Shown: piece by piece, positions 32,350 to 64,000 of the stretch
Numbering within the stretch: position 1 is the stretch's first letter
How the letters are laid out: each line of letters starts with the position of its first letter
Origin: a bacterium
GTDB taxonomy: Bacteria; Bacteroidota; Ignavibacteria; UBA10030
NCBI GenBank assembly: GCA_043803945.1
Contig: JAZDJN010000087.1
Span: forward strand, 96,001-160,000
Reading direction: 5' to 3'
Length of the DNA stretch: 64,000 nucleotides
Program-made: the position numbers and the translations under genes
The notes under the pieces: model-generated
The model's input: the letters and a program-made list of their open reading frames with translations, nothing else
Databases searched by the model: none
Told to the model about the DNA's origin: nothing

Positions 32350-32495
32350 ACGCTGATACCGTTTCTGCAACAAGCCGGGGGGCGACAAATTGATGCCCTG
32401 GGAGTCGTTCGCCTAAAAGTAGAGAAACGATGAGAAGAAAGCAAATAGATGGAGCGCTACTGCAGCATTCGAGAAAATCTGTGAGAAGAATCGAA

Positions 32496-33221: not shown

Positions 33222-33547
33222 ACCACTATAGAAAGAGGCACTGTGGACGTGATCGTTACTTACTCGAAATTACGGTCGTTCAAATAAGAATCTTGCTCAA
33301 TGTGATAGAGGAACACAGGGATCATTGTACCAAAGTACATTATCAATTCCCACAAAAAAGAACCGTCATTGAATATTCAATTTCTCGAGAAAAGATGTCA
33401 ACACCAATGGGAACATTTGCTTCTTCGGCTTATCTGTTGCAGACAACATTAATAGATGCTATATTCTTTCGAGTTGAATCTTGCTCTGCGGGATTACCTG
33501 CAGATTAACATCATAACCAATGCAGTAATATACCGATGTTGTTCTCC

Positions 33548-33643
33548 GGGGATGAATGAGGACCTGGTGGCCTTCGCGGACTTCAAATCCGTTGTCCCGC
33601 CCCGAGAGGGGTGGGAGGTGGGTTCGATTCCTACCCGTCCCCG
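33548..33643 (+). tRNA. selC: tRNA-Sec (anticodon TCA)
   Basis: GGGGATGA/CCGTCCCC extended acceptor stem; anticodon arm GCGGA-CTTCAAA-TCCGT (TCA at 33583-33585); long variable arm TCCCGCCCC..GGGGTGGGA; T-arm GTGGG-TTCGATT-CCTAC; discriminator G; CCA not encoded. Confidence 0.95.
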
Positions 33644-33870
33644 CTAAGATTACTCTGCGATGGGACGAGGCTCGTCCGCCGAAGGCGAGACGGCCCGTCC
33701 CCGCTAAAAGAATCGCCGCCAAGTTCGCCAAGAACTAAGAGAGTGGAAGAGTGGAGGGTGCACACGATATACAAGCGTATTCTGTTAGAATCGTGAGACT
33801 TTACAATAGCTCTTTTATTTCTTTGTGTTCTTGGCGCCTTGGCGGCACACTATAGAGGAGGAACCAATCG

Positions 33871-38620: not shown

Positions 38621-38773
38621 TACGAGTAAAGAATGGTCTTCAGAATTATTCATCATACTTCATCTGTGACTATCAGTGCGTTTCTTGTGTTATCGGTGTT
38701 CTATTCTTGGTTTTTCGTATGTATAAAATTGCTATCTGAGTTACCAATAAACTTTAAGTATATAGAGGTGGAT

Positions 38774-45766: not shown

Positions 45767-48700
45767 ATGCGTTCACTCCTTCGAATATTCACGTTTATCC
45801 TTACTACAGCTGTTACCCTTGCACAGGTTCCAACCATTACATCATTCTCACCTCGCTCTGGTCCTATGGAAACCATGGTAACAATACAAGGCACAAATTT
45901 CAGCACAGTACCAAGCGAGAATATCGTCTACTTTGGCGGCGTGCGGGCAACCGTAACTTCGGCAACTTCGACATCCCTCGGAGTTGCCGTTCCGCCAGGT
46001 GCGATGCTCGCACCTGTGACAGTCACTGTCGGCGGTCTCACTGCTGCCTCAACGTTGCCATTTATCACAACATTCGCAGGCAGTCAAAGCATTGACAATT
46101 CCTCCTTTGCTCCAAAGGCCGACTTTTCAACGCAGGTACCTTCTGAGATCGTTCACACTGCCGATCTGAATAGTGATGGCAAACTTGACATCATTACAAG
46201 CTATAATATTCTGCGTAACACCAGCTCAACCGCCCTCTCGTTCGCCGCAGGTGTTCCACATACGTTGGGACTGGGGGCTTTTGGTACCGATATGGCTGCC
46301 GACGACTTTGATGGCGATGGCAAACTTGACTTATGGGGGTACTCTCAAAGCAGCGGATTTCTTTACATCGCTCGAAATACATCCTCAGGCGATGGTATTT
46401 CTTTTACCACTCCAATCAGCATATTAATATCTTCTATTCGATCTCTTTCCATAGGGGATCTCGATTTCGATGGGAAACCTGATATTCTTGTTTGTGCTGG
46501 CATAACAATTGGAGTCTATCGCAATACCAGCACGAAAGGATCTATCTCCTTTGCGCCGCTTACTACAATCAGCACATGGATTACCTCGTTTCCATCAAGC
46601 GCTGTGCTTTCCGATCTTGACAATGACGGTAAGAATGAGGTGGTCGTTTCTAGTGGTGATAATTCAATGGTGGTCTTTAAGAATTCAAGCACGCCGGGAA
46701 ACTTCTCCTTCCCATCGCCCACAACGATCCCTGTGAATGCGACAGGATTTCGGATGACCTCCGCTGATCTGGATAATGACGGGACAATTGATCTGATGCT
46801 CGAACGAAATAATGTGATCTCGGTACTCCGGAATACGACAACGCCCGGCTCGTTCTCGTTCGCTGCACCATTCACTCTACAACTCAACTCGACCGCAGTG
46901 CAGAATTATGACCTTGGAGATCTGAATGGCGACGGCAAGATCGATCTTGTCATCGTCAATCAAAACGATGTACGGATCATTCTCAATAAAAGCACCTCAG
47001 GAAATCTCTCATTCTCGCCTGTTGTCAACATTGAACTTGGTGTTCAATTATGGCCTTTTGGGGTTGCAGTCGGTGATTTCGATAATGATGGACGTTCGGA
47101 TATCGCATCTGCAAATAAGTACTCTATGTCCACATCAGTATTTCGCAACGTGGTAACACCACCGCCTCAAAATGTCCTCACAATCACATCGGTAAGCCCG
47201 TTGTCGGGTCCCATCGGAACCACGGTGACAATTACAGGCAGCAATTTCAATGTAACTCCTTTGAACAATGTCGTCTACTTTGGCGCGACTCGTGCAACTG
47301 TGGTTACCGCCTCCTCTGTTTCCCTGACAGTAACCGTTCCTCTGGGTGCGACCCATGAACCGATTACTCTAGTGACTAATGGCATGATGACGCATTCGGC
47401 TTCGGAATTCAACGTAACCTTTCCGAGTCAGAATGTAATCCACACCGGCGCATTCTTCCGTAACATCGATATACCAACCGCAAAGAAGCCTATCGATATG
47501 GTCGTTAACGATTTTGATAACAACGGAAAATCTGATATCGCTTTGATCGGACGGGCAGATACGATGATTCAGATATTCAGGAATACAAGCGATTACGGCA
47601 CGCCGCCCTTCACGAAACATCTGGAACTGCCAGCCATACGTTCGGGAAAGGGATTAACAGATTTCTTCATCTACAGCCTTTGCGGCGGTGATGTCAACAG
47701 CGATGGCAAATTGGATCTCATAGCAATCTGCTACGACACAATTGTGGTTTATCCAAACACCAGCACGGCTGGATCAATATCCTTTGGCACCAAGGTGAGC
47801 TTTCCGGCGGAGGGGATCCAGTGGGGTGATGCTGCACTTGGCGATCTGGATGCCGATGGAAAGCTTGATCTTGCCGTGATAAAAACCGATGCAACACTCT
47901 CCATCATGCGCAATCTCAGCTCAGGCTCAACCATTCTCTTTGGATCACCCAGTCCAGTCGCAGCAGCGGTTGCCCACGACATTAAGGTCATCGACCTTGA
48001 TGCGGATGGACGACCTGAAATCATCGTACGCGGCGGTGAAACCAACATTCAGGTTTTCCGCAATACGAGCACACCAGGTGCAATTTCATTTGCCTCGCCA
48101 CTTATATTCACAACAGATCTGAACGCTACCTCGCTCGACATCGCCGATATCAACAACGATGGGAAACAGGATATCGTTGTTGCCTGTTGGGGCGGATTTT
48201 CGGTTTTCCTGAACTCCAGCAGTGCTGGCACATTGTCGTTAGCTCCAAAACAAACGATTACGCCTGCCATGGGAATCGAAGTTCAAGCATTAGCCTTCAG
48301 TGATATTGACGGTGATGGAAAACCCGATATGGTCGTAACCTGGTACAGCGTTCAAGGCTATGGCTCCTTCTTCAAAGTACTGAAGAACACCAGCTCCGGC
48401 AGCACAGTATCGTTTTCTTCTGCAGTGAATTTCATGACCCCGGATCGCTGCAACCCATTTTTCGTTGCCGATCTGGACAATGATTCGAAGCCCGATATTC
48501 TTATCCCCAATCCAGCGAAGAATACATTCTCGCTCTATTGGAACACCGTCTGGCCGCCGCAAATCAGCAAGCCGGTGATTCAATCCATCTCGCCCACAAC
48601 CGGTCAAATGGGAACAAAATTTACAATCACCGGCTCTGGCTTCGATCCAACACCAACGAAAAACAATGTCTATTTCGGTGGTGCGCGGGCAGAGATTCTC

Positions 48701-50266
48701 ACCGCATCACCATCAACGCTGTATATGCGAGTGCCGGCTGGTGCATTCAGTGGACCGGTTACCGTGACCCAGTATGGATTGACTGCAAAATCCAGCACAC
48801 CATTTCAGATCCTTCTGCCGGGCAGTCATGGATTCGACTCCACCTCATTTAATTTTGCCGCCAACCTTACGGTGACGTATAACAATGTCAGTTATCCCTA
48901 TACTACGGAATCCATCAAAGTTGCCGATTTCAATTGCGATGGAAAGCTCGAAGTAATGGCTTCACTCACCACCACACAAACACACCAGCTCATCACCTGG
49001 CTCAATGCAGGTATAAAAGATTCACTCAAATTCTCTATAAGTGGAAGCGGGGGCATGGCCGGTATGATTTCCATTAATGATTATGATGGAGATGGAAGAT
49101 TAGATATTGCCACGGGGGGGCTTGATGTGTGTCAGAATATCTCGCAGGGGCAGGAATCGGTCTTTGGCTATGTTAGCTATTTGACAGGGAATGCTCCAAA
49201 GGGAGTTGCCTCTGGAGATTTTGACGACGATGGGAAACCCGATATCGCTACGGTTGATAATACCGCGAATATACTCTCCGTTTTTCGAAATACCAGCATC
49301 CCAGGCACTATCTCTTTCGAGAAGAAAATTGATTATGCCACGGGCAGTGGCCCTTACTGCGTCGCCGTGGGCGATCTTACCGGTGACGGGAAACTCGATA
49401 TTGCCGTGACAAACCGAATGGCGAGCACCGTCTCACTCTATCGTAATACAAGTTCATCAGGAACAATTTCCTTCGCCTCGAAAGTAGACCTTGCTGCAGG
49501 AACATCCCCATGGGGTGTTGAAATAGCTGACATCAACAATGATGGAATTCCCGATCTGGTCGTAGCATGCACCTCCGATCGAGTGGTAACCATTTACCGC
49601 AATCTTGGTTCAGGCAGTACATTCAGCTTTGCTCCCAGGGTATCTTTCACTGCCGGCACCAGCACCAGCGGTCCTTTGGGACTCTCTCTTGCTGACCTTG
49701 ACGGCGACGGAAAACTCGATATCGGTGTGGCAATCAGTATTTACAATGTCAAGATGTTTTCACTGTTTCGAAATATCAGTACATTATCAGAGATTAAATT
49801 CGAATCTCGTCTCGATTTTTCGATGTCGACCTCGATCAACGCTTACGAAATTGCACTGGCAGACGTTGACCTCGACGGCAAGGTCGATGTTCTCTATGGC
49901 GGGTACGGCACCGGAGGAATCTCAATTTTCAAGAACATGCTTCCAGTCGTTGTTGGTGTGGAACAGGAACAAACCGGTATGCCGGCTGAATTTCGACTCG
50001 AACAGAATTACCCGAACCCCTTTAATCCTGCGACCTTCATTCGTTATCAACTTCCGGCAGCGTCAAGGGTTTCCATTAAAATTTTTAATGTGCTCGGCCA
50101 GGAAGTGGCTACGCTTGTGAACGGGGAACAGGATGCCGGTTCATATTCCATACAATGGAATGCAACCGCACCAAGCGGAATCTACTTCTGCCAAATGAGA
50201 GCATGGCCTGCTACAGGACAGAGGTCGGGGTTTGTCAAAACAAACAAAATGGTTTTACTCCATTAA
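45767..50266 (+). CDS. IPT/TIG + FG-GAP (VCBS) repeat surface protein with T9SS C-terminal domain
   Basis: Three 'P.I.S.SP..G..GT.(V)TI.G..F...P..N.VYFG' domains, many D.D.DGK.D repeats, LEQNYPNPFNP. Confidence 0.9.
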   Translation: MRSLLRIFTFILTTAVTLAQVPTITSFSPRSGPMETMVTIQGTNFSTVPSENIVYFGGVRATVTSATSTSLGVAVPPGAMLAPVTVTVGGLTAASTLPFITTFAGSQSIDNSSFAPKADFSTQVPSEIVHTADLNSDGKLDIITSYNILRNTSSTALSFAAGVPHTLGLGAFGTDMAADDFDGDGKLDLWGYSQSSGFLYIARNTSSGDGISFTTPISILISSIRSLSIGDLDFDGKPDILVCAGITIGVYRNTSTKGSISFAPLTTISTWITSFPSSAVLSDLDNDGKNEVVVSSGDNSMVVFKNSSTPGNFSFPSPTTIPVNATGFRMTSADLDNDGTIDLMLERNNVISVLRNTTTPGSFSFAAPFTLQLNSTAVQNYDLGDLNGDGKIDLVIVNQNDVRIILNKSTSGNLSFSPVVNIELGVQLWPFGVAVGDFDNDGRSDIASANKYSMSTSVFRNVVTPPPQNVLTITSVSPLSGPIGTTVTITGSNFNVTPLNNVVYFGATRATVVTASSVSLTVTVPLGATHEPITLVTNGMMTHSASEFNVTFPSQNVIHTGAFFRNIDIPTAKKPIDMVVNDFDNNGKSDIALIGRADTMIQIFRNTSDYGTPPFTKHLELPAIRSGKGLTDFFIYSLCGGDVNSDGKLDLIAICYDTIVVYPNTSTAGSISFGTKVSFPAEGIQWGDAALGDLDADGKLDLAVIKTDATLSIMRNLSSGSTILFGSPSPVAAAVAHDIKVIDLDADGRPEIIVRGGETNIQVFRNTSTPGAISFASPLIFTTDLNATSLDIADINNDGKQDIVVACWGGFSVFLNSSSAGTLSLAPKQTITPAMGIEVQALAFSDIDGDGKPDMVVTWYSVQGYGSFFKVLKNTSSGSTVSFSSAVNFMTPDRCNPFFVADLDNDSKPDILIPNPAKNTFSLYWNTVWPPQISKPVIQSISPTTGQMGTKFTITGSGFDPTPTKNNVYFGGARAEILTASPSTLYMRVPAGAFSGPVTVTQYGLTAKSSTPFQILLPGSHGFDSTSFNFAANLTVTYNNVSYPYTTESIKVADFNCDGKLEVMASLTTTQTHQLITWLNAGIKDSLKFSISGSGGMAGMISINDYDGDGRLDIATGGLDVCQNISQGQESVFGYVSYLTGNAPKGVASGDFDDDGKPDIATVDNTANILSVFRNTSIPGTISFEKKIDYATGSGPYCVAVGDLTGDGKLDIAVTNRMASTVSLYRNTSSSGTISFASKVDLAAGTSPWGVEIADINNDGIPDLVVACTSDRVVTIYRNLGSGSTFSFAPRVSFTAGTSTSGPLGLSLADLDGDGKLDIGVAISIYNVKMFSLFRNISTLSEIKFESRLDFSMSTSINAYEIALADVDLDGKVDVLYGGYGTGGISIFKNMLPVVVGVEQEQTGMPAEFRLEQNYPNPFNPATFIRYQLPAASRVSIKIFNVLGQEVATLVNGEQDAGSYSIQWNATAPSGIYFCQMRAWPATGQRSGFVKTNKMVLLH

Positions 50267-50436: not shown

Positions 50437-50667
50437 ATGAAAAACAAACTCATCGATACCGTTCTTGTCCTTGTCTACATTACTGCCCTCTTCTCTATAG
50501 GTTTTTCTTTTTCGAGTTGTGTCTCTTCCGAACTTGCTCTCCAAATGGAAACCTCGGTCAACTGTCCGTTAATGAAGAATCTTCAGGACAACGACGAAGA
50601 TCTCTTTCAAATTGAAGACGGCATTGGCGCCGTTGGGGAGGCCTCAGCCTGCCCCACGTGAGGGTAG
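50437..50667 (+). CDS. Small lipoprotein selenoprotein ending CPT-U-G (DUF4266-like)
   Basis: Lipobox FSSC; ...GIGAVGEASA-C-P-T-TGA(50659-50661)-GGG-TAG; CxxU motif and downstream SECIS-like hairpin. Confidence 0.8.
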
Positions 50668-50671
50668 GTCC

Positions 50672-50691
50672 TATGTTTCAGGTGAAACATA
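50672..50691 (+). promoter_or_regulatory. SECIS-like hairpin
   Basis: TATGTTTC-AGGT-GAAACATA, perfect 8-bp stem at +11 after the TGA; same geometry as 19433-19452. Confidence 0.8.
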
Positions 50692-51707
50692 CGAATACTA
50701 TCTCTCGAGTTCGCATCCTCTTCGGAGTGCTGGTTGCGGCTATACTGTTCTCTCCCTCACCTGTTACTGCGCAAGGATATGACGATGCTTTCGAAATGAG
50801 AAGCAAGCTCAAGGTAGAGGTACAATATGCCGACTATGGGGAGTACGAATACCCTGAGCCAATCCTTTACCAGTATGGTCTCTCACCCTATCAACAACGT
50901 TATCCTTACATCGTCAATTTTCCTGAGCGGCGGGGACTCATCAAATTCAGCAGATTGGTGAGTAGTGAGACGGTTCTTGGATTCAAATATCAATTCTCCG
51001 ATCTCCGTGAAGATGTCAAGCAGCATCTCTTCGAAACAAAACTGACGAAAACACTGGATATCGGAATTATCGGTATAGCTGCGGCACAGCTTCTTCGTGA
51101 TTCCCGGGGATTTTCTGCGGTTCAATACGGAACAGGAATAAGCTGGGAGCCAAACGCAATCACATTGTTCCAGGGAGACATCCAGTATTATTATCGAGGA
51201 GATGCTGCTAGTAGTGTGGGCGGAAGATTAGGAACTGCCAATGCACGTTTGAAGTTCAGACAAGTCTTAACGCTTTCAACCGCCCTGCAAGCCGAGTATA
51301 GTTTCTATAACGCAGCGGGCAACTCGTTGAAGTTCAACTCGCAGAGCCTGGCACTGTGGCTCAGCCAATTTTTCAAGACACAAACAGCTATTCATGTCAA
51401 TGGCCGGTTCTATACAAACACGATGGGCATTCAATCCTTCTCCCCCTCTCTGGAAATTGCTCAATATATCGACTGGGCGACCGTTCTCTGGCTGAAGTTC
51501 CGGTACTATACAAACGAGAGCAGGAATGTCTCCTTCGGTGAGCAGGGTGTCTATATCCCCAACGGTTTAAGATCGACCTCGGTGAGCGCGCAGGTAAATC
51601 ATGAACTAACTCCCTCTCTGCTGGTTTACGGGAAATATCGGTACTACAAGAGTAACCTAAACATCCAGATGAATACCTATCTCACTGGATTGGTCTATTC
51701 CTTTTAG
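50673..51707 (+). CDS. Outer-membrane beta-barrel protein (DUF3570-like by context)
   Basis: Signal peptide, amphipathic beta-strands rich in Y/R, C-terminal ..GLVYSF. Confidence 0.75.
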   Translation: MFQVKHTNTISRVRILFGVLVAAILFSPSPVTAQGYDDAFEMRSKLKVEVQYADYGEYEYPEPILYQYGLSPYQQRYPYIVNFPERRGLIKFSRLVSSETVLGFKYQFSDLREDVKQHLFETKLTKTLDIGIIGIAAAQLLRDSRGFSAVQYGTGISWEPNAITLFQGDIQYYYRGDAASSVGGRLGTANARLKFRQVLTLSTALQAEYSFYNAAGNSLKFNSQSLALWLSQFFKTQTAIHVNGRFYTNTMGIQSFSPSLEIAQYIDWATVLWLKFRYYTNESRNVSFGEQGVYIPNGLRSTSVSAQVNHELTPSLLVYGKYRYYKSNLNIQMNTYLTGLVYSF

Positions 51708-51836: not shown

Positions 51837-51985
51837 TGTCATTCCGGCAATCTTCTAGCCGCCTGCCTGACGAAGTGTTCGTCACGCAGGCAGGGAATCC
51901 AGACAAAGGCTAAATCAATACACTGGACACCGGATTGAAGTTCCGCTGTACGGGATGCCGTAAAGCGGCACATTCCGGTGTGACG
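51837..51985. repeat. REP/RPE-like composite palindrome with a nested 33-bp CCTGCC...GGCAGG element (51862-51894)
   Basis: GTCATTCCGGC..GCCG[insert]GAATCCAG....CTGGACACCGG...CCGGTGTGAC. Confidence 0.65.
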
Positions 51986-52051
51986 CGTCATTTCTTTTTA
52001 GACGACCCCAAATTGGCGTGCCATCGGTGGAGAATTTACTTAATTACAGCA

Positions 52052-52825
52052 ATGAACAGAACTCGCGCTATAGGATTGTTGCTCTTTCTTCTCTCCTGGT
52101 TCTTGCTGCAGCAGTGCGGCGAGGCTCCTCCGACAATTCCGGAACTGTTTACCGGATCGCTTAAAATAACGGCATCTGATCCGGCAATCAAATCTCTGGC
52201 AATCGACCTTGACGACATAAAGCTTGGTCTCTTTCCGAATCCGGCATTGGTATCAGATCTTACAATCGGCACTCATAAACTTCTGGTCACCGGAGACAAT
52301 AAGGCTTCATCAGTACTACTCGTAACCATCGCACGAAATCAGCAAACCAATATTGTTCTCGAATTGCTGGCCGAAGGTGCGTTTCTAGGACAGAAAGCTC
52401 CAGATTTTGCTGTGACGACTATCCTGAATGAGCGATTCTCCCTTGAGTCGCAGAAAGGCAAAGTGGTGCTTCTTGCCTTTTTTGAACATACCTGACTGGA
52501 GTGCATTCAGGCGGAGTTGCCGTCTGTGCAATGGGTTGTCGGAGCAGCATTCTCGCCCGAGCAGTTGACGATATTGGGCGTGAATACTACATCCTCAACT
52601 GAGTGGTTGTTGAATTATCGCACCCAGTCGGGTATCACATTCCCATTCGCGTACGATCAGAAGAGCGAATTGTTTACCAAGTACAAAATCGGCGGAACGT
52701 ATGGATACTATCCGCCGACGTATATCATCATCGATCAGAACGGTATTGTCCGGTACAGAATTGACAACACCTTTAAACGAGCAGTGGAAATGGCAACTTG
52801 CATAAAAGGATTACTCACAAACTAA
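52052..52825 (+). CDS. TlpA/peroxiredoxin-like thioredoxin-fold selenoprotein (UxxC) with N-terminal PEGA-like domain, probable lipoprotein
   Basis: G.KAPDF...GKVVLLAFFEHT-TGA(52493-52495)-LECIQAELP joins ORFs 51935 and 52517 in one frame; later YPPTYIIIDQNG.VRY. Confidence 0.9.
52502..52530 (+). promoter_or_regulatory. SECIS-like hairpin
   Basis: TGCA..CAGGCGG-AGTTG-CCGTCTG.TGCA. Confidence 0.7.
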
Positions 52826-52851
52826 CCAAGGCAAACCTTGATGGAGGCGCT

Positions 52852-55161
52852 ATGAAAACGAAAGTGAGTATTATAATTCTGCTGATCCCGGTGATGATTG
52901 TGTCACAGAGCAAATCTTGGGAAGCGATGGGTCCAGAGGGGGGAAGAATTGCTGCGTTCGCCCAGGATCCTCAAAACGGCGCCATCTTGTACACAACAAC
53001 CTATGGATATCCCAGCAAAATCTTTAAGTCTTCAACTCACGGACAACAATGGAACGTGGTTGGATCGATCAACGATTATATCAGTGGATTTGCTATTGAT
53101 CCACGTATAAGCGCAATCATCTATGTGTTCTCCTCGAGCCGGCTCTATCGAAGCACAAATGGCGGGCAGATCTGGTCATCGATTCCGTTGCCGGCGAATT
53201 ATTACCTCTATGACATTTGCCTCGATCCGATAAAATCCAACACGATTCATGCAAGCGGCTATCATTACGTCTCCGGCACAACATACCAGTCGTACGTCGC
53301 TTATCTGAACAGCACGAACGCCGGTGCATCCTGGACAACAAACGATATTCTGCTGACGTTGAGCTACAATGAGGGATATGGGCGAGCCATCGCTGTCGAT
53401 AGTTCTGATAATCAAACAATCCTCATTGGGGGTTACGTCTATGTACTCTCTGGCAGTTTGTACAACGGATATGGCAAACTCCTTCGCAGCACAAACAGCG
53501 GCGTTAGTTTTTCCGACGTGACACCATCGGGTTCAGGGTATTTCTACGATGTTGCTATCGATCCGAAAAATTCCGGGAAGGCCTACGCAGCATCGTCGGG
53601 TGGTGTCTATCGAACAACAGACAAGGGATTAACCTGGCTGCGGAATAATGGTTTTGTGGGCATCTGTTACTATCTTTCCCTCGATAAGGCGAATCCCAAT
53701 AACCTTCTCGCTCAATCATACGGCCAACTCTACCGGAGCACTGACGCTGGAATCAACTGGCTTCAATCACTTACGACCGGGTCGGGGTATTCGGGGATCA
53801 TCATGGAGAACTCTCCATCGCAGTACATGTTTTATGCCAACGACGCCGGCATTTTCCAATCCAGCAACCGCGGCAACACCTGGGAACCCTGCAATCGCGG
53901 TATTACCTCTGCAAATATCACCTCACTGTATACTCCATCTTCCTCGATGCCAATCCTGTATGCAGGATTCCAATACAATACAGTATTCAAAACCACGGCT
54001 GCAACTAACCCGTCGGTATCGTGGCAGATGCTGGATCGATTTTACACATGCACCAATATCAACGCAATACTCTCATTGCCGGAAGATCCGAACAAGCTTT
54101 ATGCTCTGGAGGGCGGCGGCTGAGGTAACTCTGGGCTCTATATGAGCACAAACGGCGGCGCCGCTTGGAAACAACTCAACCAGACGCTTGATGAAGGATA
54201 CGCAGTTGTCACTGTCCCCGGAAGTGTTTTTACCGGAGGATGTCTTGTCGATAGTGCGCTTTCAAAGATGGCTGTTATCAAACTCACCATTGATGGTACG
54301 CTAACCAACACATCGATCCTGAGTTCTGAAGCCGGTGAGGTGAAGGCCATGGCTGTCCATCCCATAAATTCTTCTATCGTGTATGCGGGTGGAACCTATC
54401 GTGATATTTCATACTATAACTGCAGTCGATTATATAAAACGATAAATGGCGGAAGCAGTTGGTTTGAAATCGGTAAAACTAGTTTCAACATCAAAAACGA
54501 TGGAGTGTACGGTCTCTGTGTCGATCCATCGAATCCGGCTAAACTTCTTGCCGCAACAAACCTTGGTGTTCTTGTCAGTGAAAACGAGGGTACGACATGG
54601 AGCTCGGCAGCGCAGAAATTAAATTGCACCTCGCTTCTCCCCGACCCTTTAACGCCCAACCGGTATTTTCTCGGAACAAGAACCGGCGTCTATATCAGCA
54701 TTGATGGCGGGAAGTCCTGGCAGCAACTCGGGGGCCAATTAACTGCAACACCGGTTCTCTCGCTCGCTTATGATAAAATAGCAAAGGTCCTTTATGCCGG
54801 GACAGAAGGGCAGGGTGTTTACCGCTATAGCCTCTCGACAACAAATGTTGCTTCAGCACCCTTTGATGTGCCCGACGAATTTGCGCTGTACCAGAATTAT
54901 CCCAACCCGTTTAATCCATTGACAATAATCGATTTTCAATTGCCGATTACCACAATGGTGACACTTAGTGTTTTTGACCTTCTCGGCCGCGAGGTGGCAA
55001 TACTGGTGAATGAAGAAAAAACGGCGGGAAGGTACTCCGTTTCATGGAATGCATCGAACACTCCGAGCGGTATTTATTTTTACAGACTGTTGACCGGCGA
55101 CGCCAACCATGAACCAAGGGCAAGTCTCTGTCAGACAAAAAGAATGATCATCCTGAGATAA
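52852..55161 (+). CDS. BNR/VPS10-type beta-propeller selenoprotein with T9SS C-terminal domain (769 aa, Sec424)
   Basis: Signal peptide, W..MGPEGG start, S.N.G..W Asp-box repeats; YALEGGG-TGA(54121-54123)-GNSGLYMSTNGG joins ORFs 52798 and 54142 in frame; LYQNYPNPFNP. Confidence 0.8.
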
Positions 55162-55211
55162 TTTTTCGAATCTACTGTCTCTTCAAGCAGGACTATTATC
55201 GGACGGAAAGT

Positions 55212-56084
55212 TTGAGTACCTTGCTTTTATCCTATCACTTTGCAGCGACAATGATCCTTGCCCCAATGACTCCCTTACTGGCACAGCGACTCTGTGCTGC
55301 ACTTCACTGCAGCCTCCCCACAAAAAAAATGGTCGACGATATTTATCGGGCTGCACCAGTAAAACTTGCACCGCAGCCTATCCCCCCCAGCGGTGCCATG
55401 ATAACGGTGCCCGTGTTTGCCGCTCATAATGATTCGGTGCGACAATAACGCTCTGCTTCATTATCACAATTTCCCCTGGGTGTTCTGATAGGCGGAACAA
55501 AGAAGGATGTAATTATCTCAAACAGAATTTATACCAACCTAAAAATAAATGTCCCCAAGCCGGTCGTGATTTATGGATGGCATAAGCTCGATGGAACACC
55601 GATACAACCCGTCTATAACGGCCACGAGCAGACCTACGCCGATTACAGCCATGGCATTCGCCTTGTGAAGGATACCGTGCTGGTTGATGGTATCCCGAGA
55701 TTTCTCTCTTCGGTGCTTGCTGATCCGGTGTATCATCTTCTCTTGAGCGACGAAGGAATCATTTCCATTCCCTATTACACTTTATCTACCCATGTATTAC
55801 CCGAAGAGGTTCCACCGCCCTATCAATTTCAACTCCATCAAAACTATCCAAATCCATTCAACCCAATTACAACAATCTGTTTTACTGTGTCATCTTCTGG
55901 TAAGTATCAGCTCAGGGTGTACACCTTAACAGGAAAGGAAGTTAGCGTACTTGAATATCAGGAGTTGTATGCGGGTAATCAGACGGTTCGGTATGATGCT
56001 CGTGATCTGCCCTCGGGAACATATTTCTACAAATTAGAGAGCAAGAACGGTGCACTCATCAGAAAAATGACGCTGGTGAAATGA
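55212..56084 (+). pseudogene. 5'-truncated T9SS-domain protein gene with an internal TAA
   Basis: PMTPLLAQR...HNDSVRQ-TAA(55446-55448)-RS...GGTKKDV..VVIYGWH..YADYSHGIRLV..QNYPNPFNP in one frame; no signal peptide or credible start. Confidence 0.75.
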
Positions 56085-56420
56085 AAGATCCTGAGATGGG
56101 AGAGAGTTCCGCCAATCCGCCAAAAAGATGGCGGACAAGTCCACCCCCGACATTAAAGCGTTGAACTGCCGGTCATCCGCCTGAATAGACCTAATCGTTC
56201 GCTGCTCAGCGAAATCTGATAGAAAGCGAATGAACTTTCACGGCGAGATTACTCTCTCTTTCGTTGCCGAAAGATATGGTTCGGGTATTTATCATTACCA
56301 CATTTAAAAGGTGAGCAGCATTTTCACGCGCAGAGTATTTTTTTGAAAGACCATTTTCCCAAACCATGTGATGGTTGCCTTTCACCTGAAACTCGTGTAG
56401 CTTTAATTCACTGAGGGTTG

Positions 56421-56452
56421 AATCCCCCGCTGCTTGCGGCGGGGAGCTTCAT
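56421..56452. mobile_element. Possible isolated IS200/IS605-type end hairpin (no transposase)
   Basis: AATCCCCCGCTGCTTGCGGCGGGGAGCTTCAT, imperfect GC-rich hairpin resembling IS605-family ends. Confidence 0.35.
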
Positions 56453-56500
56453 TTTTATCACTGTTCTTTTTTTATCATCTGCCTGAAAGCTCCTGCCGAT

Positions 56501-58933
56501 ATGCCAAGAATAATGCTGCTTGTTTTTCTCCTTGCTGCGTCTACACTCCAGGCTCAGGTGGCGCTGGATACTCTTTCTTCGTTCCCTGTGGCACCCGGTG
56601 TAATCCATACCACCATCGTTGCCCCGTCTGTTCCATGGACAATCAACCTGCTCCAGATCGACCTTACCAATCCCCTCATTAGCGTCAAAACGGTCAAAGC
56701 GAACGACCGCATGGCGGGTCTGGAACGAACAAGCTCCATGGCGGCACGGAATAGCCGCGAAGGTCACCTGGTTGCAGCCGCAGTTAATGGAGATGCTTAT
56801 GCGGCCGGTGGTATTCCCACCAACATGCAACTGGTCGACGGTGAGCCTGTTCACAAAGAGGTCGACAACGTCTGTATCGGGCTCGACCTGACCAAGAAAC
56901 CGATGATGAAGATGGTGAATTTCGACGGCGAAGTCCGGACCGCAAAGGAGGTCTATCATTTTTCCAGCATCAATCAGGCACGAGGATCCGATCAGCTTGT
57001 GCTCTTCAACCGCTTCTACGGAAACTCAACAGGTACCGATGCCAACGGTGCAGAGGCGCTTTTGACGCCTCTGTCGGAATGGTATGCCAATGGCCTCGTG
57101 GCATGCCGGGTCGATACAATTGTCAACGGCGCAGGGAACACGTCATTTCCCTCTTCAAAAGTTATCCTTTCAGGTCATGGCGCCGCTCGAACATTTCTAA
57201 CATCACGAATACAACAAGGTGACACGCTCCATCTCTTTCTCGGCCTGTCGCCCTCTCTAAAAAAAATGAAACAGATGATTGGGGGATTTTCTATCCTCGT
57301 GTCCGAGGGAAAAGTTAATACTACGCGTATCACGGTCCGTGAGCCGCGCACCATTGCAGGTTTCTCTGCCGACAGCACAAAACTCTATCTTGCGACCATC
57401 GATGGACGGTCGGCATCGAGTCTCGGGATGACTTACTTTGAGCTTGCCGATTTTATGCTCCAGATGGGGATGGCTTTCGGCATTAACCTGGACGGCGGCG
57501 GATCGACCACAATGGTCGTCCGGGATCAAATAACCAACCGCCCGTCAGACGGCCAGGAGCGAATGGTAGGCAATTCCATCGTCGTCGTTTCCACCGCGCC
57601 GAAAGGTCAGTTGACAAAGATTCAGATACTGCCGAATCGGGCAAAAGTTTTTATCGGAGATACGTTTCAGTTCTCGGCGCAGGGTGTTGATGAATATTTT
57701 AATCCGTATCAGCTCGATCCTTCCCTAATCACTTTTTCCGTTCATCCCTCCCTGGGAACGATATCCCCGACGGGACTTTTCAAACCGAGCGGGTTAAAAG
57801 AAAGCGGATTTGTCTACATCTCTTATGGATCGCTTATCGATTCCGCAGCAGTGTTGCTCCGAACGATCCGGCGAATAGCGATAACACCGAAATTTGCTGT
57901 CACCGATCTTTCCCGCCCAATTCCTTTTTCGCTGAATGGATTTGACGAGGACGGTATGGCACATAAACCCGGCCTTTATCAAATTCAATGGAGGCTCACG
58001 AATCCTTCGCTTGGACAGATTTCGCCGGAAGGCGTTTTTACTCCACAGGCCAGGGGAATCTCGCTTCTTATTGCCTCCATGAACAATACGGCAGCAGACA
58101 CAGCGCTGATCCGGGTGGAGACAGGAAGCGGAACGCTCGTGATCGATTCATTGGAATCGAGAGGGAACTGGAAAATCTCTATGTTGAATATCGAACAGGC
58201 CGCCGTGAGTATTGCTCCAACTGTCAGTTCATTAGGCCGGTTTTCTCTGCAAATCGATTATTCATACCGGTATGATTCAAGCGTCCCCTCGTACATCTAC
58301 ATCGATTCTTTGTTTTCGTTATACGGTGTACCGGATTCACTCTCGGTTGACTGCCGCGCCGATAGTGCACGGTACCGTCTCTATTTCATTGTCGAGGATG
58401 ACAACAGGGAATTATTCCGTTTCTTCGGGCATACATTTGCTGATCAGCCAAACATCTTCAAACAGATTCGGGCATCGACTGCTACTCCTCAGATGGTTGG
58501 CACCTCGGGAGTTTTCAATTTTCCTATCACGCTGAAACGTATCGAAATACAGTTGATGGGAACGGGAAAATTTTCAGGGACTCATTACAATGGTACGTTG
58601 TATCTGGATAATCTCACCGTTCATTATCCGGGAATTCCCACCGTTGCAGAACGGGAGATCTCTCCTCCTCGAACTTTTTCTCTTCTGCAAAACTTCCCCA
58701 ATCCCTTCAATCCGACAACGACCATCCGGTTTACGGTTCCTCACAATGGCCTATACCGCTTGACCGTTCATAACCTGCTGGGTCAGGAAGTGATTATGGT
58801 ACTGCACAAGACTCTTTCAGCAGGGTATTATTCGGTACTGTTCGATGCAGAGCAGTTAAGCTCGGGTATGTACGTTTACAAGCTCGAAGGGGGTGCGTTA
58901 ACCCTTACGAAGAAAATGCTGATCGTGAAGTAA
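56501..58933 (+). CDS. Phosphodiester glycosidase (NAGPA-like) protein with Ig-like domains and T9SS C-terminal domain
   Basis: AAVNGD, EPRT..G, TIDGR, GMT..ELA, NLDGGGSTT and NRPSDG.ER motifs; LLQNFPNPFNP. Confidence 0.9.
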   Translation: MPRIMLLVFLLAASTLQAQVALDTLSSFPVAPGVIHTTIVAPSVPWTINLLQIDLTNPLISVKTVKANDRMAGLERTSSMAARNSREGHLVAAAVNGDAYAAGGIPTNMQLVDGEPVHKEVDNVCIGLDLTKKPMMKMVNFDGEVRTAKEVYHFSSINQARGSDQLVLFNRFYGNSTGTDANGAEALLTPLSEWYANGLVACRVDTIVNGAGNTSFPSSKVILSGHGAARTFLTSRIQQGDTLHLFLGLSPSLKKMKQMIGGFSILVSEGKVNTTRITVREPRTIAGFSADSTKLYLATIDGRSASSLGMTYFELADFMLQMGMAFGINLDGGGSTTMVVRDQITNRPSDGQERMVGNSIVVVSTAPKGQLTKIQILPNRAKVFIGDTFQFSAQGVDEYFNPYQLDPSLITFSVHPSLGTISPTGLFKPSGLKESGFVYISYGSLIDSAAVLLRTIRRIAITPKFAVTDLSRPIPFSLNGFDEDGMAHKPGLYQIQWRLTNPSLGQISPEGVFTPQARGISLLIASMNNTAADTALIRVETGSGTLVIDSLESRGNWKISMLNIEQAAVSIAPTVSSLGRFSLQIDYSYRYDSSVPSYIYIDSLFSLYGVPDSLSVDCRADSARYRLYFIVEDDNRELFRFFGHTFADQPNIFKQIRASTATPQMVGTSGVFNFPITLKRIEIQLMGTGKFSGTHYNGTLYLDNLTVHYPGIPTVAEREISPPRTFSLLQNFPNPFNPTTTIRFTVPHNGLYRLTVHNLLGQEVIMVLHKTLSAGYYSVLFDAEQLSSGMYVYKLEGGALTLTKKMLIVK

Positions 58934-59007
58934 CGGATGATTCTTTTAGAGAAATTGGTTATCATTAGACCAGAGCTTAAGAAAGCGATTGCCAGAAAGA
59001 ATCCAGC

Positions 59008-59514
59008 ATGGTCCGTCCAAATATCAGAACTCTAGCAACCCTGTTTATTCTTTTCGTTGTACCATCGTTGATCTCCCATGCACAGGAAGGCCTCAAAGCA
59101 GGAATGAAAGCACCAGACTTCGAGCTCTCCGACATTAACGGAAACAAGGTTTCTCTCTCTTCCTTCCTCAATAAAAACATCGTCGTCATTCACTTCTGGA
59201 AATCGAAGTGAAGAGAATGCCAGGCGGAGTTTCCGTCTCTCATCGATCTGCAGGAAGAAATTAAAGAAGTAAAAGTCCTCTCCATCAACACCATTGACAT
59301 GGCGAGAAGGGTACAGTCCGATGCCAGAGCTTTCGGCCTCCCCTTCGATGTCCTTGTCGGCAGGGATTCGAACATCCTTACCGTTTACAAAGTCACAAAA
59401 CTCCCCCGGGTGCTTATTGTCGGAAAGAAGGGGACTGTTGTCTTCACCGAAAAGTTTGCCTCCTATGAAAAGCTCAAAGAAGAAGTTGAAAAAGCATTGA
59501 AGAAGGGATTATAG
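59008..59514 (+). CDS. Exported TlpA-like thioredoxin-fold selenoprotein (UxxC, 168 aa)
   Basis: G.KAPDFEL.D.NG.KVSLS...VVIHFWKSK-TGA(59209-59211)-RECQAEFP; open frame to 59514 including LPRVLIVGKKG. Confidence 0.92.
59222..59238 (+). promoter_or_regulatory. SECIS-like hairpin
   Basis: AGGCGG-AGTTT-CCGTCT; shares CAGGCGGAGTT.CCGTCT with the 52508 hairpin. Confidence 0.7.
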
Positions 59515-59815
59515 CAATATCATACTCAGCCAATAAGTGCCACAAAGAAAAAAGAAAACTATAAAGAGTTCTTTCTTCGTGTAGCTTCGTGCCTCCTTCG
59601 TGCTCTTCGTGTAACGCTATTAAAAACTTTACACTAAGTGACACGAAGGAAAAGAGAAGACACAGAGGCGTAAAATAACGAGTGTTAATAATTGTCGTAA
59701 AGCAAGATAGAATAGAATCCATACATTAAGTCATCATAATCCTGTAAGTGTTTCACTTGGTGCCTTATAGACTTCGTGGCACATTTTTCGTCGAGAACTA
59801 AGTAAGGAGAATCAC

Positions 59816-61852
59816 ATGAATCTCATCACCAGAAGAATTTCAGGGTGCATCGTTTTGATGTTCCTGTTTTGCGGGCTCCTTTTCTGTCAGAAAGCTCAAT
59901 GGGAGTCTCTCGGTCCCGACGGCGGTATGATTCAAAGCCTCCTCAAAGATCCGGGTAATGGTAACATTCTTTACTGTGCCGCTCAGGGGAAACCATACCG
60001 CATCTTCCGCTCGACAGACGGAGGGAACCACTGGTCGCAGGTTTCGAAGATCGACGATCAAGTGCTCGCCTTTGGGAATCATCCCACAGTGAAATCGATG
60101 CTCTATGTGCTCGCCTACAAAGTGAGCACAGACAATACACGACCGACACGGGAGAACACACTCTACATCAGCACGGATGGCGGAACAAGCTGGCTGACTA
60201 AAGAGCTTCCGGAGCAGACATTTATTTCAAAGATTGCTCTTGATCCGGTAAGCCCGACAATTATCCACGCAATGGGATTGCTGCAGCCGGATTATAAGCG
60301 GGCATACTTTAAAAGCACGGATGAGGGAAAGAGCTGGACTCAAACCATCATTGCATCGGGGCGTGGTTCTGCAAGCGTCCTTGGAATCGATCCAAAGAAT
60401 CCCAACATCATCTATGTCGGCGGTTATACCCTGAATGATTCCAACAAACTCGTGCCCGCATTCTATAAGAGTGTCGATGGCGGAGCACATTTCGAGCAGA
60501 TGTCCCTGAAGATCACCACTCCCGCAGTTGCCATCATTTCAGATATTGCCATCGACCCCACGGCCTCCGGCAGGCTCTTCATTTCAATTTCCAATGCCGT
60601 CTATCGAAGCACCAACGGCGGCGAATCATGGGAAAAGAACAGCAGTACAATCCTCGCAGTGCAGCGGCTCTGGCTCGACCCGAATGATTCGAACCATCTC
60701 TTTGCCGCAACTTCTCCGGGGATTATCGAGAGCAAGGATGGCGGCGTAACGTGGAAATCGCTCACCGGCAAATATCCCGGCCGAACAACGAATGGTCTCA
60801 TGTTCAAGTCAAAGCCAATGCCCACGGTGCTTGTTACCAACTCCTCCGGTATCTGGCGAACGGTGGATGGAGGAAAAACATGGAAGTCAAGCCACAGTGG
60901 CATTCTCGGTACAACGGTCACGGCGTTAAGTATCGCCCCATCGTCACCGAACATTTTATATTCCGATGTAAAGTTCAATGCGCTCTATAAAACAACAGTC
61001 GCTGCAAAACCAACTGTTGTATGGAAACAGCTTCCGGTTTTCTATACGTGTACAGAGTTAAGCAGCCTGATGATCTCGGAGAAAGATCCCGATAAAATCA
61101 TCGCCCTCGAAGGCGGTGGCTGAGGAAACTCAGGGCTCTTTGTGAGCACAGACGGCGGCGCCGTTTGGAACGAACAGGATAAGACACTTGATGACGGATT
61201 TGCACTTGCATTGGGATCGGCCCTCTATCAGGCGGGCAGTTGGAAACCGGATCCGAAGAATACGCTGATTCGAATGGCGGTCTTTAAGAGTTCTGACAAG
61301 GGCGAAACCTGGCAGCATAAAACACTCAGCGACAGCGCAGGGGTGGTCAAGGCGCTGGTGGTTCACCCTACAAACAAGAACATTCTCTTTGCCGGCGGGA
61401 CAGTCTGGTGGAACCGGTTTATGAAAAACGCTGTCACTAAAAGCGTTCTCTACGCTACTCAGGACGCTGGAGAAACCTGGATAGAAATCGAAGGATTGAA
61501 CGGCAAGTCGGATTGTATTAACGGCCTTGTCTTTGAACCAGGCAATCCTAATCGACTGCTTGCTGCCATGAACAATGGTGTTGCCATCAGCGAAGATGGA
61601 GGAAAGATATGGAAGCTGCCATCGCAGCAGGTAGCGGCACTTTGTATTGTTGCCGACCAGCTTCAAAAAGGGCGCTTTTTCATTGGCGGCCCGAAGGGTG
61701 CCTGGAGGAGCGATGACGGCGGAATCACGTGGAAAGAACTCAATGAGGGCTTGACCATTCGCTCGATTCTCTGTCTGACATATGATTCGAAAAATTCGAT
61801 ACTGTATGCCGGCACTGAAAGCGGCGGCACAGTACGGTTGCACCTGAAATAA
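59816..61852 (+). CDS. BNR/VPS10-type beta-propeller selenoprotein, no T9SS domain (678 aa, Sec436)
   Basis: TAAGGAG SD; WESLGPDGG; S.DGG..W repeats; IALEGGG-TGA(61121-61123)-GNSGLFVSTDGG joins ORFs 59816 and 61142. Confidence 0.8.
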
Positions 61853-62134
61853 CCCGATATGGTCGGGAGCAGACTTGTCCCGACGTTTTTGTCGGGAGCT
61901 CCCTCCCAGATACCGAACCGTTCTCTCCTTCCGGTGTTCATAGAGAAGGGAACGGTTCGTTTCGTACTATCGCTTTACAGTAATCAAGAGACTTCGTACA
62001 TTGTACTTGCCTGCCGGGAGAATGTGGGGAAGGTTCGGGCTGCGCGATGTGTAACGCACATCGCGCGATCATCAACACGTTCAGGACATCGTTCTCACAT
62101 GTTTATTCCACACAGCACAATCAGAGAGGTACAA

Positions 62135-63769
62135 ATGAAACCGTTCATTGTTGCTCTTGCTCTTCTTTTTGCGTTCTCCCTCCGCGCACAGGAAACGATC
62201 ATCACCGGCACACTGCTTGGTTATGACGGCAAACCGATGCAGATGACAAACATTCATCTTCAAAAACCGGGACAAAAACCAAAAGAAACTGTCCGGGCAG
62301 AGAAGGATGGTTCGTTCAAACTGATCGTTAAGGATACCGGCATTGTTCTTATCAAGTTTGCCGGACTCTTTCATCTGTCGGAAGATATTCCCTTTCTCAT
62401 CAAGCAACCGTCTACCATCAAGCTTTCGCTTCAGTTAGGGACATACCATTGCAATAAAAAACCACTAGACCCAAAGATTCTTGGAAGTTTTAATAATTGG
62501 AACTTATCGAAGCCTTTCGACCTGAAAGAAGAAAAGGATGGGACATATTCCGCGGAATTTGAAACAGCAGAAAAGGAATTTTCCTATCAGGTTCAGGGTT
62601 TTGAATCAACCGGTCGAACCGTTAACGGTACGCTTTCCGAACGGTATGAATACGACGGCGACGGTGATTATCGATCGATTGTGACACCAAAGGATGGAAA
62701 GATAAAAATTGTTTTTGATCCCTCTAAGGTTCTTGTCTCTTCCGCCCTGCCAAAACTCCAATTCGACGATCCCGGAAGCCGTGCGGCTCGCTATAGCACT
62801 TACCGCTTCGATGTCCTACGGTTGATACGGGAACGCTCATGGGCTCTCCTCGACTTTATTAACTCCGGAGGTGAGTCTAAAGACTTCAAGTTCGACAAGG
62901 ATTATTCGTCTGAGATGACCGCCTGCGCACAAGAAATAAAGAAGGAGAGTGATCCGCTGCTTCGTGATTTACTCTTTTTAAAATATTTTTACTACCCGCC
63001 TGAGAAAGGAGATATTGAAATTGCCAGACTCTACTTGAAGGTACTTCCCGACTTAATGAAACATCAACCTAGCGCGGGTGAGATCTCAGTTTTCTCTTCA
63101 CTTCTCTCGATCGGTAAAATGATGCAGTATAACGATGAATACATGAGCTCCTTTTTCGAGATCATTGATAATTCCAAAAGTGCAATTCTAAATTACAATT
63201 TGATCAATAATGTAATGAGAAATTTGAAGACACAGAACGATGCTGCGGCAGTAAAAGCATTCTACACGAAAGCGTTGGAAAAACTGGAAGGCACATCGTG
63301 GCTAAGGTCTTTCAAACAGCAATATGCTCCGAAAGCAGTAATTGCCGCAGGCGAAGCGGTTCCCTCTTTCTTAGTCAAGTCGCTGGAAGACAATACAAAA
63401 ATCTACACCAATCAAACAATGAAAGGCAAAGTGTACCTGGTACACTTCTGGGCGTCATGGTCCGAACCATCGTTGAAAGAGATGGAGAATCTTCACAAAA
63501 CGTATGAACAGTACAAAACAAAGAACTTTGAAATTCTCAGTCTCTCAGTTGATGCTTCACCGGAAGAGGGAACAGCGTTTCGTAAAAAGAAATGGGCGAT
63601 GCCCTGGCTCCATGCCTTTGCATCGACGGAGAAGAATTTGTTGGCCGACTTTGGGGTGCTTGCACCGCCAAAATTGATACTGATCGATACAAAGGGGATT
63701 GTCGTCGCAATGGACGCAGAGCTTCAGGGTGCAGCGTTGGGACAAACGCTTGCTCGTATTCTAAAATGA
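62135..63769 (+). CDS. Exported multidomain protein with a C-terminal TlpA-like domain whose CxxC is replaced by SxxS
   Basis: ATG 62135 after GAGGT; carboxypeptidase-regulatory-like N-terminus; GKVYLVHFWASWSEPSLKEM; PP..ILID.KG.VV. Confidence 0.85.
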   Translation: MKPFIVALALLFAFSLRAQETIITGTLLGYDGKPMQMTNIHLQKPGQKPKETVRAEKDGSFKLIVKDTGIVLIKFAGLFHLSEDIPFLIKQPSTIKLSLQLGTYHCNKKPLDPKILGSFNNWNLSKPFDLKEEKDGTYSAEFETAEKEFSYQVQGFESTGRTVNGTLSERYEYDGDGDYRSIVTPKDGKIKIVFDPSKVLVSSALPKLQFDDPGSRAARYSTYRFDVLRLIRERSWALLDFINSGGESKDFKFDKDYSSEMTACAQEIKKESDPLLRDLLFLKYFYYPPEKGDIEIARLYLKVLPDLMKHQPSAGEISVFSSLLSIGKMMQYNDEYMSSFFEIIDNSKSAILNYNLINNVMRNLKTQNDAAAVKAFYTKALEKLEGTSWLRSFKQQYAPKAVIAAGEAVPSFLVKSLEDNTKIYTNQTMKGKVYLVHFWASWSEPSLKEMENLHKTYEQYKTKNFEILSLSVDASPEEGTAFRKKKWAMPWLHAFASTEKNLLADFGVLAPPKLILIDTKGIVVAMDAELQGAALGQTLARILK

Positions 63770-63840: not shown

Positions 63841-64000
63841 ATGAACCTTAACTCACGTATGATCTTCCCGGCGATTGTGCTGCTTCTCCTTCTGCCGCTG
63901 CTGCTGGCCGGGCAAACCCGCCTGCCATTGAAGACCACTTCAAGCGGGCAGGGCGGAACGTGGGAGCCAATTGGACCTGAAGGAGGAAGTATGACTGCAC
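63841..64000 (+). CDS. N-terminus of a third BNR/VPS10 propeller paralog (3'-truncated by window edge)
   Basis: GGAGG SD; MNLNSRMIFPAIVLLLLLPLLLAGQ...TWEPIGPEGGSMTA matches WEAMGPEGG and WESLGPDGG of the two Sec propellers. Confidence 0.75.
   Translation, partial: MNLNSRMIFPAIVLLLLLPLLLAGQTRLPLKTTSSGQGGTWEPIGPEGGSMTA

Follow-up and report, generated by a model that had tools for sequence, protein, structure and literature searches.

The stretch of DNA analyzed here (the window) comprises 64,000 nucleotides of a bacterial contig (JAZDJN010000087.1, positions 96,001 to 160,000; GenBank assembly GCA_043803945.1; GTDB lineage Bacteria; Bacteroidota; Ignavibacteria; UBA10030). It hosts two paralogous genes for beta-propeller proteins built of Asp-box repeats, each containing one in-frame TGA codon that is very probably read as selenocysteine (Sec, U). 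Gene calls with the standard code (table 11) split both genes, gene 1 into 52798-54123 and 54142-55161, and gene 2 into 59816-61123 and 61142-61852. Reading through the TGA joins the two parts of each gene into one open frame that contains no other TGA. Gene 1 (52798-55161(+), where the plus sign denotes the forward strand) then codes for 787 amino acids counted from the TTG at 52798, with Sec at residue 442 (U442), and gene 2 (59816-61852(+)) for 678 amino acids, with U436. The likelier start of gene 1 is the ATG at 52852 (MKTKVS...), which is followed by a hydrophobic, signal-like N-terminus.

Both proteins carry FYTC and then ALEGGG-U-GNSGL-x2-ST-[ND]-GG, with the same distance between Cys and Sec (C-x23-U). 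In gene 1, the conserved Cys is encoded by the TGC at 54049-54051(+), the conserved Glu of the ALE-GGG-U motif by the GAG at 54109-54111(+) and Sec by the TGA at 54121-54123(+). The corresponding codons of gene 2 are the TGT at 61049-61051(+) for C412, the GAA at 61109-61111(+) for E432 and the TGA at 61121-61123(+) for U436. An earlier reading of the DNA by eye and open reading frames (hereafter the sequence-only reading) had described this C-x23-U site in two divergent paralogs, together with synonymous codon differences on either side of the TGA. We reproduced the coordinates and the spacing in both genes, and the codons that it quoted are exact. The Sec codons start exactly 7000 bases apart, at 54121 and 61121; the intervening genes are unrelated and we took this distance as a coincidence.

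The alignment between the two proteins (34% identity over 684 alignment columns, E-value 2e-131) continues unbroken across the TGA, and codon-usage scores are positive both 5' and 3' of it in both genes. A six-frame search of the same genome returned 53 matches, the best three of which have exactly one TGA each while the other 50 have none. A third paralog, 45% identical and with the motif ALEGGG-U-GNSG, starts within the window (63841-64000(+)) and continues beyond its end; the full gene (L002:1393-3447) codes for 685 amino acids.

The TGA site in homologous genes

We examined ten distinct genes as DNA: the three paralogs of the window's genome and seven others, found in three metagenome contigs and in four further genomes of Ignavibacteriota type. 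All ten have the TGA at one alignment column and keep the C-x23 spacing. In a sample of 201 genomes of the same order (the order sample), four genomes, one of them the window's own, gave a match with an E-value of at most 1e-40. Two of the others, which belong to another family of the order (G171 and G037), have one TGA gene each with 37% identity. The remaining homolog, in G176, is 27% identical, reads without a stop and has neither the Cys nor the Sec loop. A scan of species-representative genomes recovered G171 and G037 (as L033 and L034) and added two more, L032 and L035, both with the TGA. In a metagenome scan based on one generic Asp-box pattern, which matched at least 600 stretches, three of the matches listed (L036, L037 and L038) keep Cys-x23-TGA at 26-28% identity; L039 duplicates L037 and was counted once. 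Loci L040-L115 held no further family members, a phylum-wide search with two candidates scored per genome was a weak negative, and the ESM Atlas returned generic Sortilin/BNR clusters only. A profile search with a setting for longer lengths was dominated by multi-repeat proteins.

These searches bear on several expectations of the sequence-only reading. It had argued that the peptide after the stop is conserved at the protein level, as independent nonsense mutations would not produce, and the recurrence of the TGA in the same column of 10 out of 10 genes is indeed far beyond chance. It had also counted homologs without Cys or TGA, or halves encoded as separate genes with variable spacing, as evidence to the contrary. 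The homolog search instead gave Cys and TGA in all ten genes, down to approximately 27% identity, and the halves were never found as separate genes.

Public databases carry these genes as truncated halves. We identified 23 database proteins that, judging from their protein sequences, stop exactly at the TGA site. One of them (P0003) ends with ...FYTCTS...ALEGGG, and the other 22 come from 120 listed database matches. Fourteen of these 22 end with [AG][LM]EG[GSAT]G and have Cys-x23, and two of the 14 are the products of genes already counted. At least 23 public entries look mis-annotated as truncated halves. In a quick maximum-likelihood tree, the three paralogs of the window's genome cluster together with 97% support. 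The propeller gene at L032:4000-6033 shifts frame near L032:4600. The nearly identical protein P0254 has an intact N-terminal half, so the shift may be an assembly error or specific to the strain.

Probable RNA signal and machinery for selenocysteine insertion

The 60 nucleotides 3' of the UGA have a mean identity of 79% over the ten genes, while the proteins drop to approximately 27% identity. The covariance analysis of this RNA, proposed in the sequence-only reading, revealed two conserved hairpins with compensatory changes in the second. Hairpin 1 spans columns 15-27 after the UGA (GCUCN-NNN-NGAGC; 54135-54147(+) in gene 1 and 61135-61147(+) in gene 2). Four of its pairs are invariant, and the fifth varies among C-G, U-A, U.G and no pairing. 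Hairpin 2 spans columns 29-47 and has a stem of 7-8 bp with an N-G-G-N-N loop. Three of its stem pairs alternate among A-U, G-C, C-G and U-A, with one unpaired cell in those 30. In gene 2, this SECIS-like hairpin (61149-61167(+)) has 8 bp, the loop GGC and an energy of -9.9 kcal/mol; in gene 1 (54149-54167(+)), it has the loop (C)GGC(G), one A.C mismatch and -5.5 kcal/mol. SECIS stands for the selenocysteine insertion sequence.

Overall, 92.3% of the cells in the two-hairpin structure are paired and 5 of the 13 pairs are changed on both sides. None of 500 shuffles reached its covariation score, and slid registers pair in 33-44% of cells. We considered whether hairpin 2 could be a by-product of Asp-box coding and rejected this possibility. 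The hairpin forms with 7 out of 7 pairs in nine of the ten Sec-adjacent blades and in none of the other 75 Asp-box blades that these genes encode, where the best control blade reaches six pairs in this register, once. Within the element, 10 out of 10 genes use CUC for Leu, AGC for Ser and ACA for Thr, codons with an overall usage in these genes of 34%, 29% and 24%, respectively.

The bacterial SECIS model given in section 5 of PMC13188914 has an apical loop of 3-9 nt, a stem of 4-16 bp, a distance of 16-37 nt from the UGA, a G within the first two loop positions (N1-G-[G|U]-N-N2) and an energy of -7.5 kcal/mol or lower. Hairpin 2 agrees with this model in stem length (7-8 bp), in its N-G-G-N-N loop and in the distance of the loop from the UGA (32-33 nt) in all ten genes, and its energy lies between -7.5 and -11.0 kcal/mol in nine of them, gene 1 being the exception. 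The sequence-only reading had noticed the hairpins GCTC-N5-GAGC at +12, which correspond to hairpin 1. They are present as described; they are not the whole signal, as the second hairpin at +29 to +47 is the one that covaries. We rejected hairpin 1 alone as the SECIS, because its loop has no conserved G and both the consensus loop and the covariation sit in hairpin 2. We also rejected independent starts of the downstream halves at ATG 54142 and GTG 61142, another possibility raised before: only four of the ten genes have ATG or GTG at that codon, and the equivalent codon is AAG, AGG or CGG in the other six. Rfam at the gathering threshold returned tRNA-Sec only and no SECIS family match, and folding of 121-nt windows gave no signal (z-scores of -0.27 and -0.84).

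Taken together, the UGA would be decoded as Sec through a two-hairpin RNA that lies within the Asp-box coding sequence, with a mini-hairpin at +15 to +27 followed by a hairpin of 7-8 bp at +29 to +47. Such a SECIS would be hidden in a protein repeat motif, and single-hairpin models that expect a stem right after the UGA could miss signals of this kind.

The components by which we recognized a Sec-decoding genome, namely tRNA-Sec, SelA, SelB and SelD, are all encoded within the window. They are selA (20333-21694(+); 593.6 bits, cut-off 267.9), selB (21744-23609(+); 377 bits, cut-off 242.25), selD, itself with one in-frame TGA (25270-26193(+); 324.4 bits, cut-off 125), and tRNA-Sec with anticodon TCA (33548-33644(+)). 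SelB also scores above the curated cut-off in the four other genomes with a TGA gene, hence in five out of five with the window's genome. It was not found in G176 (95% complete), whose homolog is without Cys and TGA. Of the 201 genomes in the order sample, SelB was found in 3, and these are exactly the three with the TGA gene. In G037, G171 and the genome of L032, selB lies within approximately 13 kb of the propeller gene. The Sec trait is thus patchy (3 out of 201 genomes, in two families), which could reflect transfer or repeated loss. Since the propeller gene marks every SelB-positive genome of the order sample, it may explain why the trait is retained there.

The Sec island of the window (20333-33644) measures approximately 13 kb and contains, in order, selA, selB, an HGD-D-like gene, selD, a methyltransferase gene, two more HGD-D-like genes, a gene for a Reg_prop/Y_Y_Y protein and tRNA-Sec.

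Fold, conserved site and predicted secretion

The sequence-only reading had assigned the proteins to BNR/VPS10 propellers. Pfam indeed reports Sortilin-Vps10 (PF15902, E-value 1.4e-38) together with BNR and PSII_BNR repeats, and the PF15902 match arises from the repeated blades. NCBIfam returned the F510_1955 glycosylhydrolase repeat model only, and no selenoprotein model. We built an AlphaFold2 model of the gene 2 product from 39 sequences (mean pLDDT 90.6, pTM 0.89). The strand pattern assigned to this model by DSSP gives 14 blades, that is, two seven-bladed propellers in tandem. The best Foldseek matches in the PDB are all GH74 xyloglucanases (E-values 1.2e-26 to 7.7e-22, TM-scores 0.61-0.66, 14-19% identity), and the best profile match to PDB sequences is 2cn3_A (E-value 6.9e-29). 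HMM alignments to GH74 chains are shifted by whole blades. Sortilin and SorLA structures reach TM-scores of 0.23-0.27 to the model. On the basis of the fold we therefore rejected membership in VPS10, which is a single ten-bladed propeller, and in Ycf48, and replaced the earlier assignment with a GH74-like pair of seven-bladed propellers. Each product would be an exported protein of this type.

The model agrees with the earlier remark that the TGA falls in the middle of a blade. When the strand list is compared to the Asp-box positions, the Sec blade is predicted to be blade 9, which comes second in the C-terminal propeller, with the TGA between strands B and C of this blade. Cys412 precedes strand A (414-420) by two residues, and Sec436 occupies the turn that joins strand B (428-433) to strand C (439-444). 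In propellers, the loops before strand A and between strands B and C share one face of a blade. This general topology places Cys412 and Sec436 probably on the same blade face, in agreement with the Cys-Sec pairing proposed in the sequence-only reading.

To characterize the site further, we compared nine Sec members with 30 non-Sec relatives. Forty-nine columns are invariant in the Sec members, and 46 of them hold scaffold residues common to the relatives. The only invariants specific to the family are C412, E432 and U436, which are present in 0%, 7% and 0% of the relatives, respectively. GH74 enzymes have a conserved catalytic Asp pair in the cleft between the propellers. In the nine Sec members, the sole invariant Asp is D308, a generic Asp-box residue found in 90% of the 30 relatives. 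Since D308 and E432 are the only invariant acidic residues, the GH74-type catalytic pair appears not to be conserved.

Gene 1 ends with a C-terminal sorting domain of the type IX secretion system (T9SS; 54898-55101(+), PF18962, E-value 1.7e-8), which is translated only if the TGA is decoded. The same domain was found in five of the six other C-termini tested. Overall, it is present in six of the ten genes, always downstream of the TGA, and secretion of these proteins would therefore require Sec insertion. Gene 2 is without this tail (no PF18962 in its scan), and the third paralog and the L032 gene, which lie outside the PF18962 scans, end directly after the propeller. A related gene without in-frame TGA lies between tRNA-Sec and the propeller selenoprotein genes (38633-40840); it codes for a BNR/PSII_BNR propeller of 735 amino acids with a T9SS tail. 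A further T9SS protein, of 1499 amino acids with FG-GAP/TIG repeats, is encoded at 45767-50266, and a weak, repeat-type match to TcdB_toxin_midN (E-value 3.3e-13) falls inside its FG-GAP repeats.

Neighbouring genes, interpretation and related systems

Directly upstream of gene 1 and of gene 2 lies a gene for an AhpC/TSA-Redoxin-like selenoprotein with a UxxC motif. The one next to gene 1 (51935-52825(+)) reads FFEHT-U-LEC, with the TGA at 52493-52495, and the one next to gene 2 (59008-59514(+)) reads FWKSK-U-REC, with the TGA at 59209-59211. The first type is found beside the propeller gene in four of the five genomes (also in G171, G037 and L035) and the second type in five out of five. A DNA pattern for FWKS[KR]U[RK]ECQAEFP occurs in 3 of the 201 genomes, the same three as SelB. 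Both proteins have signal-like N-termini and hence are likely to reside in the compartment of the propeller. Their genes carry a single canonical SECIS hairpin (AGRCGG-AGUUN-CCGYCU) from +14, the A-G-U-U-N loop of which lies 16 nt from the UGA. In the propeller genes, hairpin 1 may compact the long spacer, so that hairpin 2 would sit at an effective distance like that in these neighbours.

Two other genes lie close by. A protein of 349 amino acids without Pfam match is encoded directly upstream of the first AhpC-like selenoprotein (50658-51707(+)), and its homolog in L034 (G037) and L035 occupies the equivalent position; that it is an outer-membrane protein is only a guess from its sequence. 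The gene between gene 2 and the third paralog (61859-63769) codes for 636 amino acids with a C-terminal thioredoxin-like domain, FWASWSEPS, that has no Cys at the expected CxxC. Its counterpart in L032 reads FWATWAGPC, with one Cys. This protein may be a redox-inactive or single-Cys relative.

We consider it very probable that the propeller genes encode a genuine selenoprotein family, because the TGA is conserved, the SECIS-type element covaries, the full machinery lies in the window and the co-occurrence with SelB is strict. The proposal of a candidate new family in the sequence-only reading thus gains support from the TGA in 10 out of 10 genes, the machinery and the distribution of SelB. That this family has the Cys/Glu/Sec site and the RNA signal described above is likewise highly likely. 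As for its chemistry, Cys412 and Sec436 would form a redox-active selenylsulfide centre assisted by Glu432, and the co-encoded AhpC/TSA-like UxxC selenoproteins would recycle the selenylsulfide. The chances that this mechanism applies are, in our estimate, about even.

Some observations weigh against this picture. A selenoprotein family is usually recognized by homologs that have Cys in place of Sec. Our searches, which were not exhaustive, returned none among 353 proteins, 4 genome loci and 80 metagenome loci; for the metagenomes this absence is weak evidence, as it refers to the matches listed for a single generic Asp-box pattern. Moreover, P0169 (labeled candidate division WOR-3 in the database) has Gly at the Sec column (ALEGSG-G-GNAEL). 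Its Gly codon is one base from TGA, and both the Cys and the T9SS tail are retained. In the quick tree, the Sec genes form two groups (starred) and P0169 nests within one of them, so that its Gly looks like a secondary loss. The Glu is not universal either: eight of the 22 truncated proteins (P0266, P0270, P0276, P0282, P0289, P0293, P0297 and P0341) end with ...[IL][LMA][ATVK]G[GA] (ILAGG is one example), have Cys-x22 and lack the Glu. This group may be a sister subfamily whose stop falls at the same position in the structure. Gene 1 has a weak copy of hairpin 2, with its A.C mismatch and -5.5 kcal/mol. The remaining points concern the mechanism. The placement of Cys and Sec on one face is deduced from topology; the three metagenome contigs have no AhpC-like neighbour in the flanks examined; and, as SelB is distributed in the same way, the AhpC-like genes next to the propeller gene show an island that travels together and not a specific partnership.

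The main alternative for the mechanism, under which the protein is still a selenoprotein, is that the site of Sec, Cys and Glu binds a metal or metalloid, as part of either a surface protein for binding or sensing or a metalloenzyme. The three residues are a plausible ligand set, as they are the only invariants specific to the family. Several of the bacterial selenoproteins listed in Table 1 of PMC13188914 bind metal, and the three distant metagenome members without a thiol-reductase neighbour in the flanks examined would fit such a site as well. We nevertheless regard it as less likely than the selenylsulfide centre, since we found no additional conserved ligands of the type His, Cys or Asp, the Glu is missing from the ILAGG subgroup and UxxC partners of thiol:disulfide type adjoin the propeller gene in five out of five genomes.

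The remaining alternatives concern the UGA itself. It could act mainly as a regulated stop, with a fragment of approximately 435 amino acids as the usual product and the full-length protein made when selenium is plentiful. Bacterial Sec insertion competes with termination, and the T9SS tail behind the UGA in six of the ten genes would tie the fate of the protein to decoding. Such a fragment, however, would break off within blade 9, after two of its four strands, and would lack blades 10-14 altogether. Every gene conserves the part downstream of the UGA, and the full-length product would still need Sec decoding, so we find a mainly regulatory role quite improbable. Reading of the UGA as a standard amino acid (Gly, Trp or Cys), through near-cognate decoding or an altered code, is suggested by P0169, which has Gly at this column, one base away from UGA. 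It is very improbable, as family members of the same lineage, for example the genes of G037 and L036, terminate at ordinary TGA codons, the TGA form is restricted to SelB-containing genomes, and the UGA is followed in all genes by a hairpin of SECIS type. Finally, nonsense pseudogenes or pairs of separate genes would agree with the split calls under table 11 and with the truncated halves in databases, but can be virtually dismissed, since the codon is always TGA, in one column of 10 out of 10 genes down to approximately 27% identity, the frame always continues with both sides looking coding, and a start codon stands at the proposed internal start in only four of the ten genes.

Returning to the selenoprotein family, we tentatively propose a broader reading, which we hold as a possibility to be weighed and not as the expected outcome. 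The propeller would be an obligate-Sec enzyme without Cys-using relatives, a glycosidase-like double propeller exported to the cell surface by the T9SS, with undescribed extracellular redox or metalloid chemistry at its Cys/Glu/Sec site. Its SECIS would represent a new two-hairpin class embedded in Asp-box coding sequence. It would also be the protein for which soil Ignavibacteriota-type bacteria keep the patchy Sec island (selABCD, the propeller and its UxxC partners). If no Cys form exists, Sec may be irreplaceable here, which would make the family useful for asking what selenium does beyond sulfur.

The mechanism of Sec insertion is already known. New here are the family with its fold, the fact that Cys forms appear to be absent, the route of secretion and the arrangement of the signal in two hairpins. 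Table 1 of a 2026 inventory of 119 prokaryotic selenoprotein families (PMC13188914) lists no family of propeller, BNR, sortilin or glycosidase type. This result fits the view of the sequence-only reading that Asp-box propellers are an unaccustomed fold for Sec. Most catalogued selenoproteins have a thioredoxin-like fold (section 7 of the same inventory). The main texts of PMC13188914 and of PMC12013277 (deep-Sep), whose supplementary tables may list more, do not mention BNR, sortilin, propeller, glycosyl hydrolase or photosystem, and that of the former does not mention WD40. A literature search found nothing that joins selenoprotein with BNR and selenocysteine, or selenoproteome with Ignavibacteria, and no report of a T9SS-secreted selenoprotein. 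If true, the family would bring Sec into a beta-propeller, glycosidase-like scaffold, a fold uncatalogued for Sec. Its apparent secretion through the T9SS, as predicted from the C-terminal domains, would place a selenoprotein in a compartment unreported in the literature searched.

Four known systems are closest to the propeller family. The GH74 xyloglucanases and oligoxyloglucan cellobiohydrolases (PDB 2cn3, 4lgn and 1sqj) share with it the tandem of seven-bladed Asp-box propellers. The propeller family, however, is only 14-19% identical to them and has no invariant Asp pair in its nine Sec members; none of the GH74 enzymes is listed as a selenoprotein in Table 1 of PMC13188914. A recently predicted outer-membrane barrel selenoprotein is likewise rich in beta structure, belongs to the cell envelope and has a Cys close to Sec. 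It differs in its CxxU motif and in its reported Cys homologs, whereas the propeller family is not a barrel and no Cys homologs of it were found. The eukaryotic selenoprotein S forms a selenylsulfide between Sec188 and Cys174, residues far apart in sequence, according to PMC3628699. The chemistry proposed for the propeller is alike, in that Sec would bond to a resolving Cys and then be reduced by a partner of thioredoxin type. The two share neither fold nor kingdom nor SECIS type, and the bond in the propeller is a prediction. Finally, Prx-like or thiol:disulfide oxidoreductase selenoproteins with UxxC (PF00578, cd02966) are listed in Table 1 of PMC13188914. They are of the type of the propeller's neighbours, which are encoded in the same island as the Sec machinery. 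These neighbours combine a thioredoxin fold and a four-residue UxxC motif with one SECIS hairpin at +14, whereas the propeller family combines Cys-x23-Sec with two hairpins.

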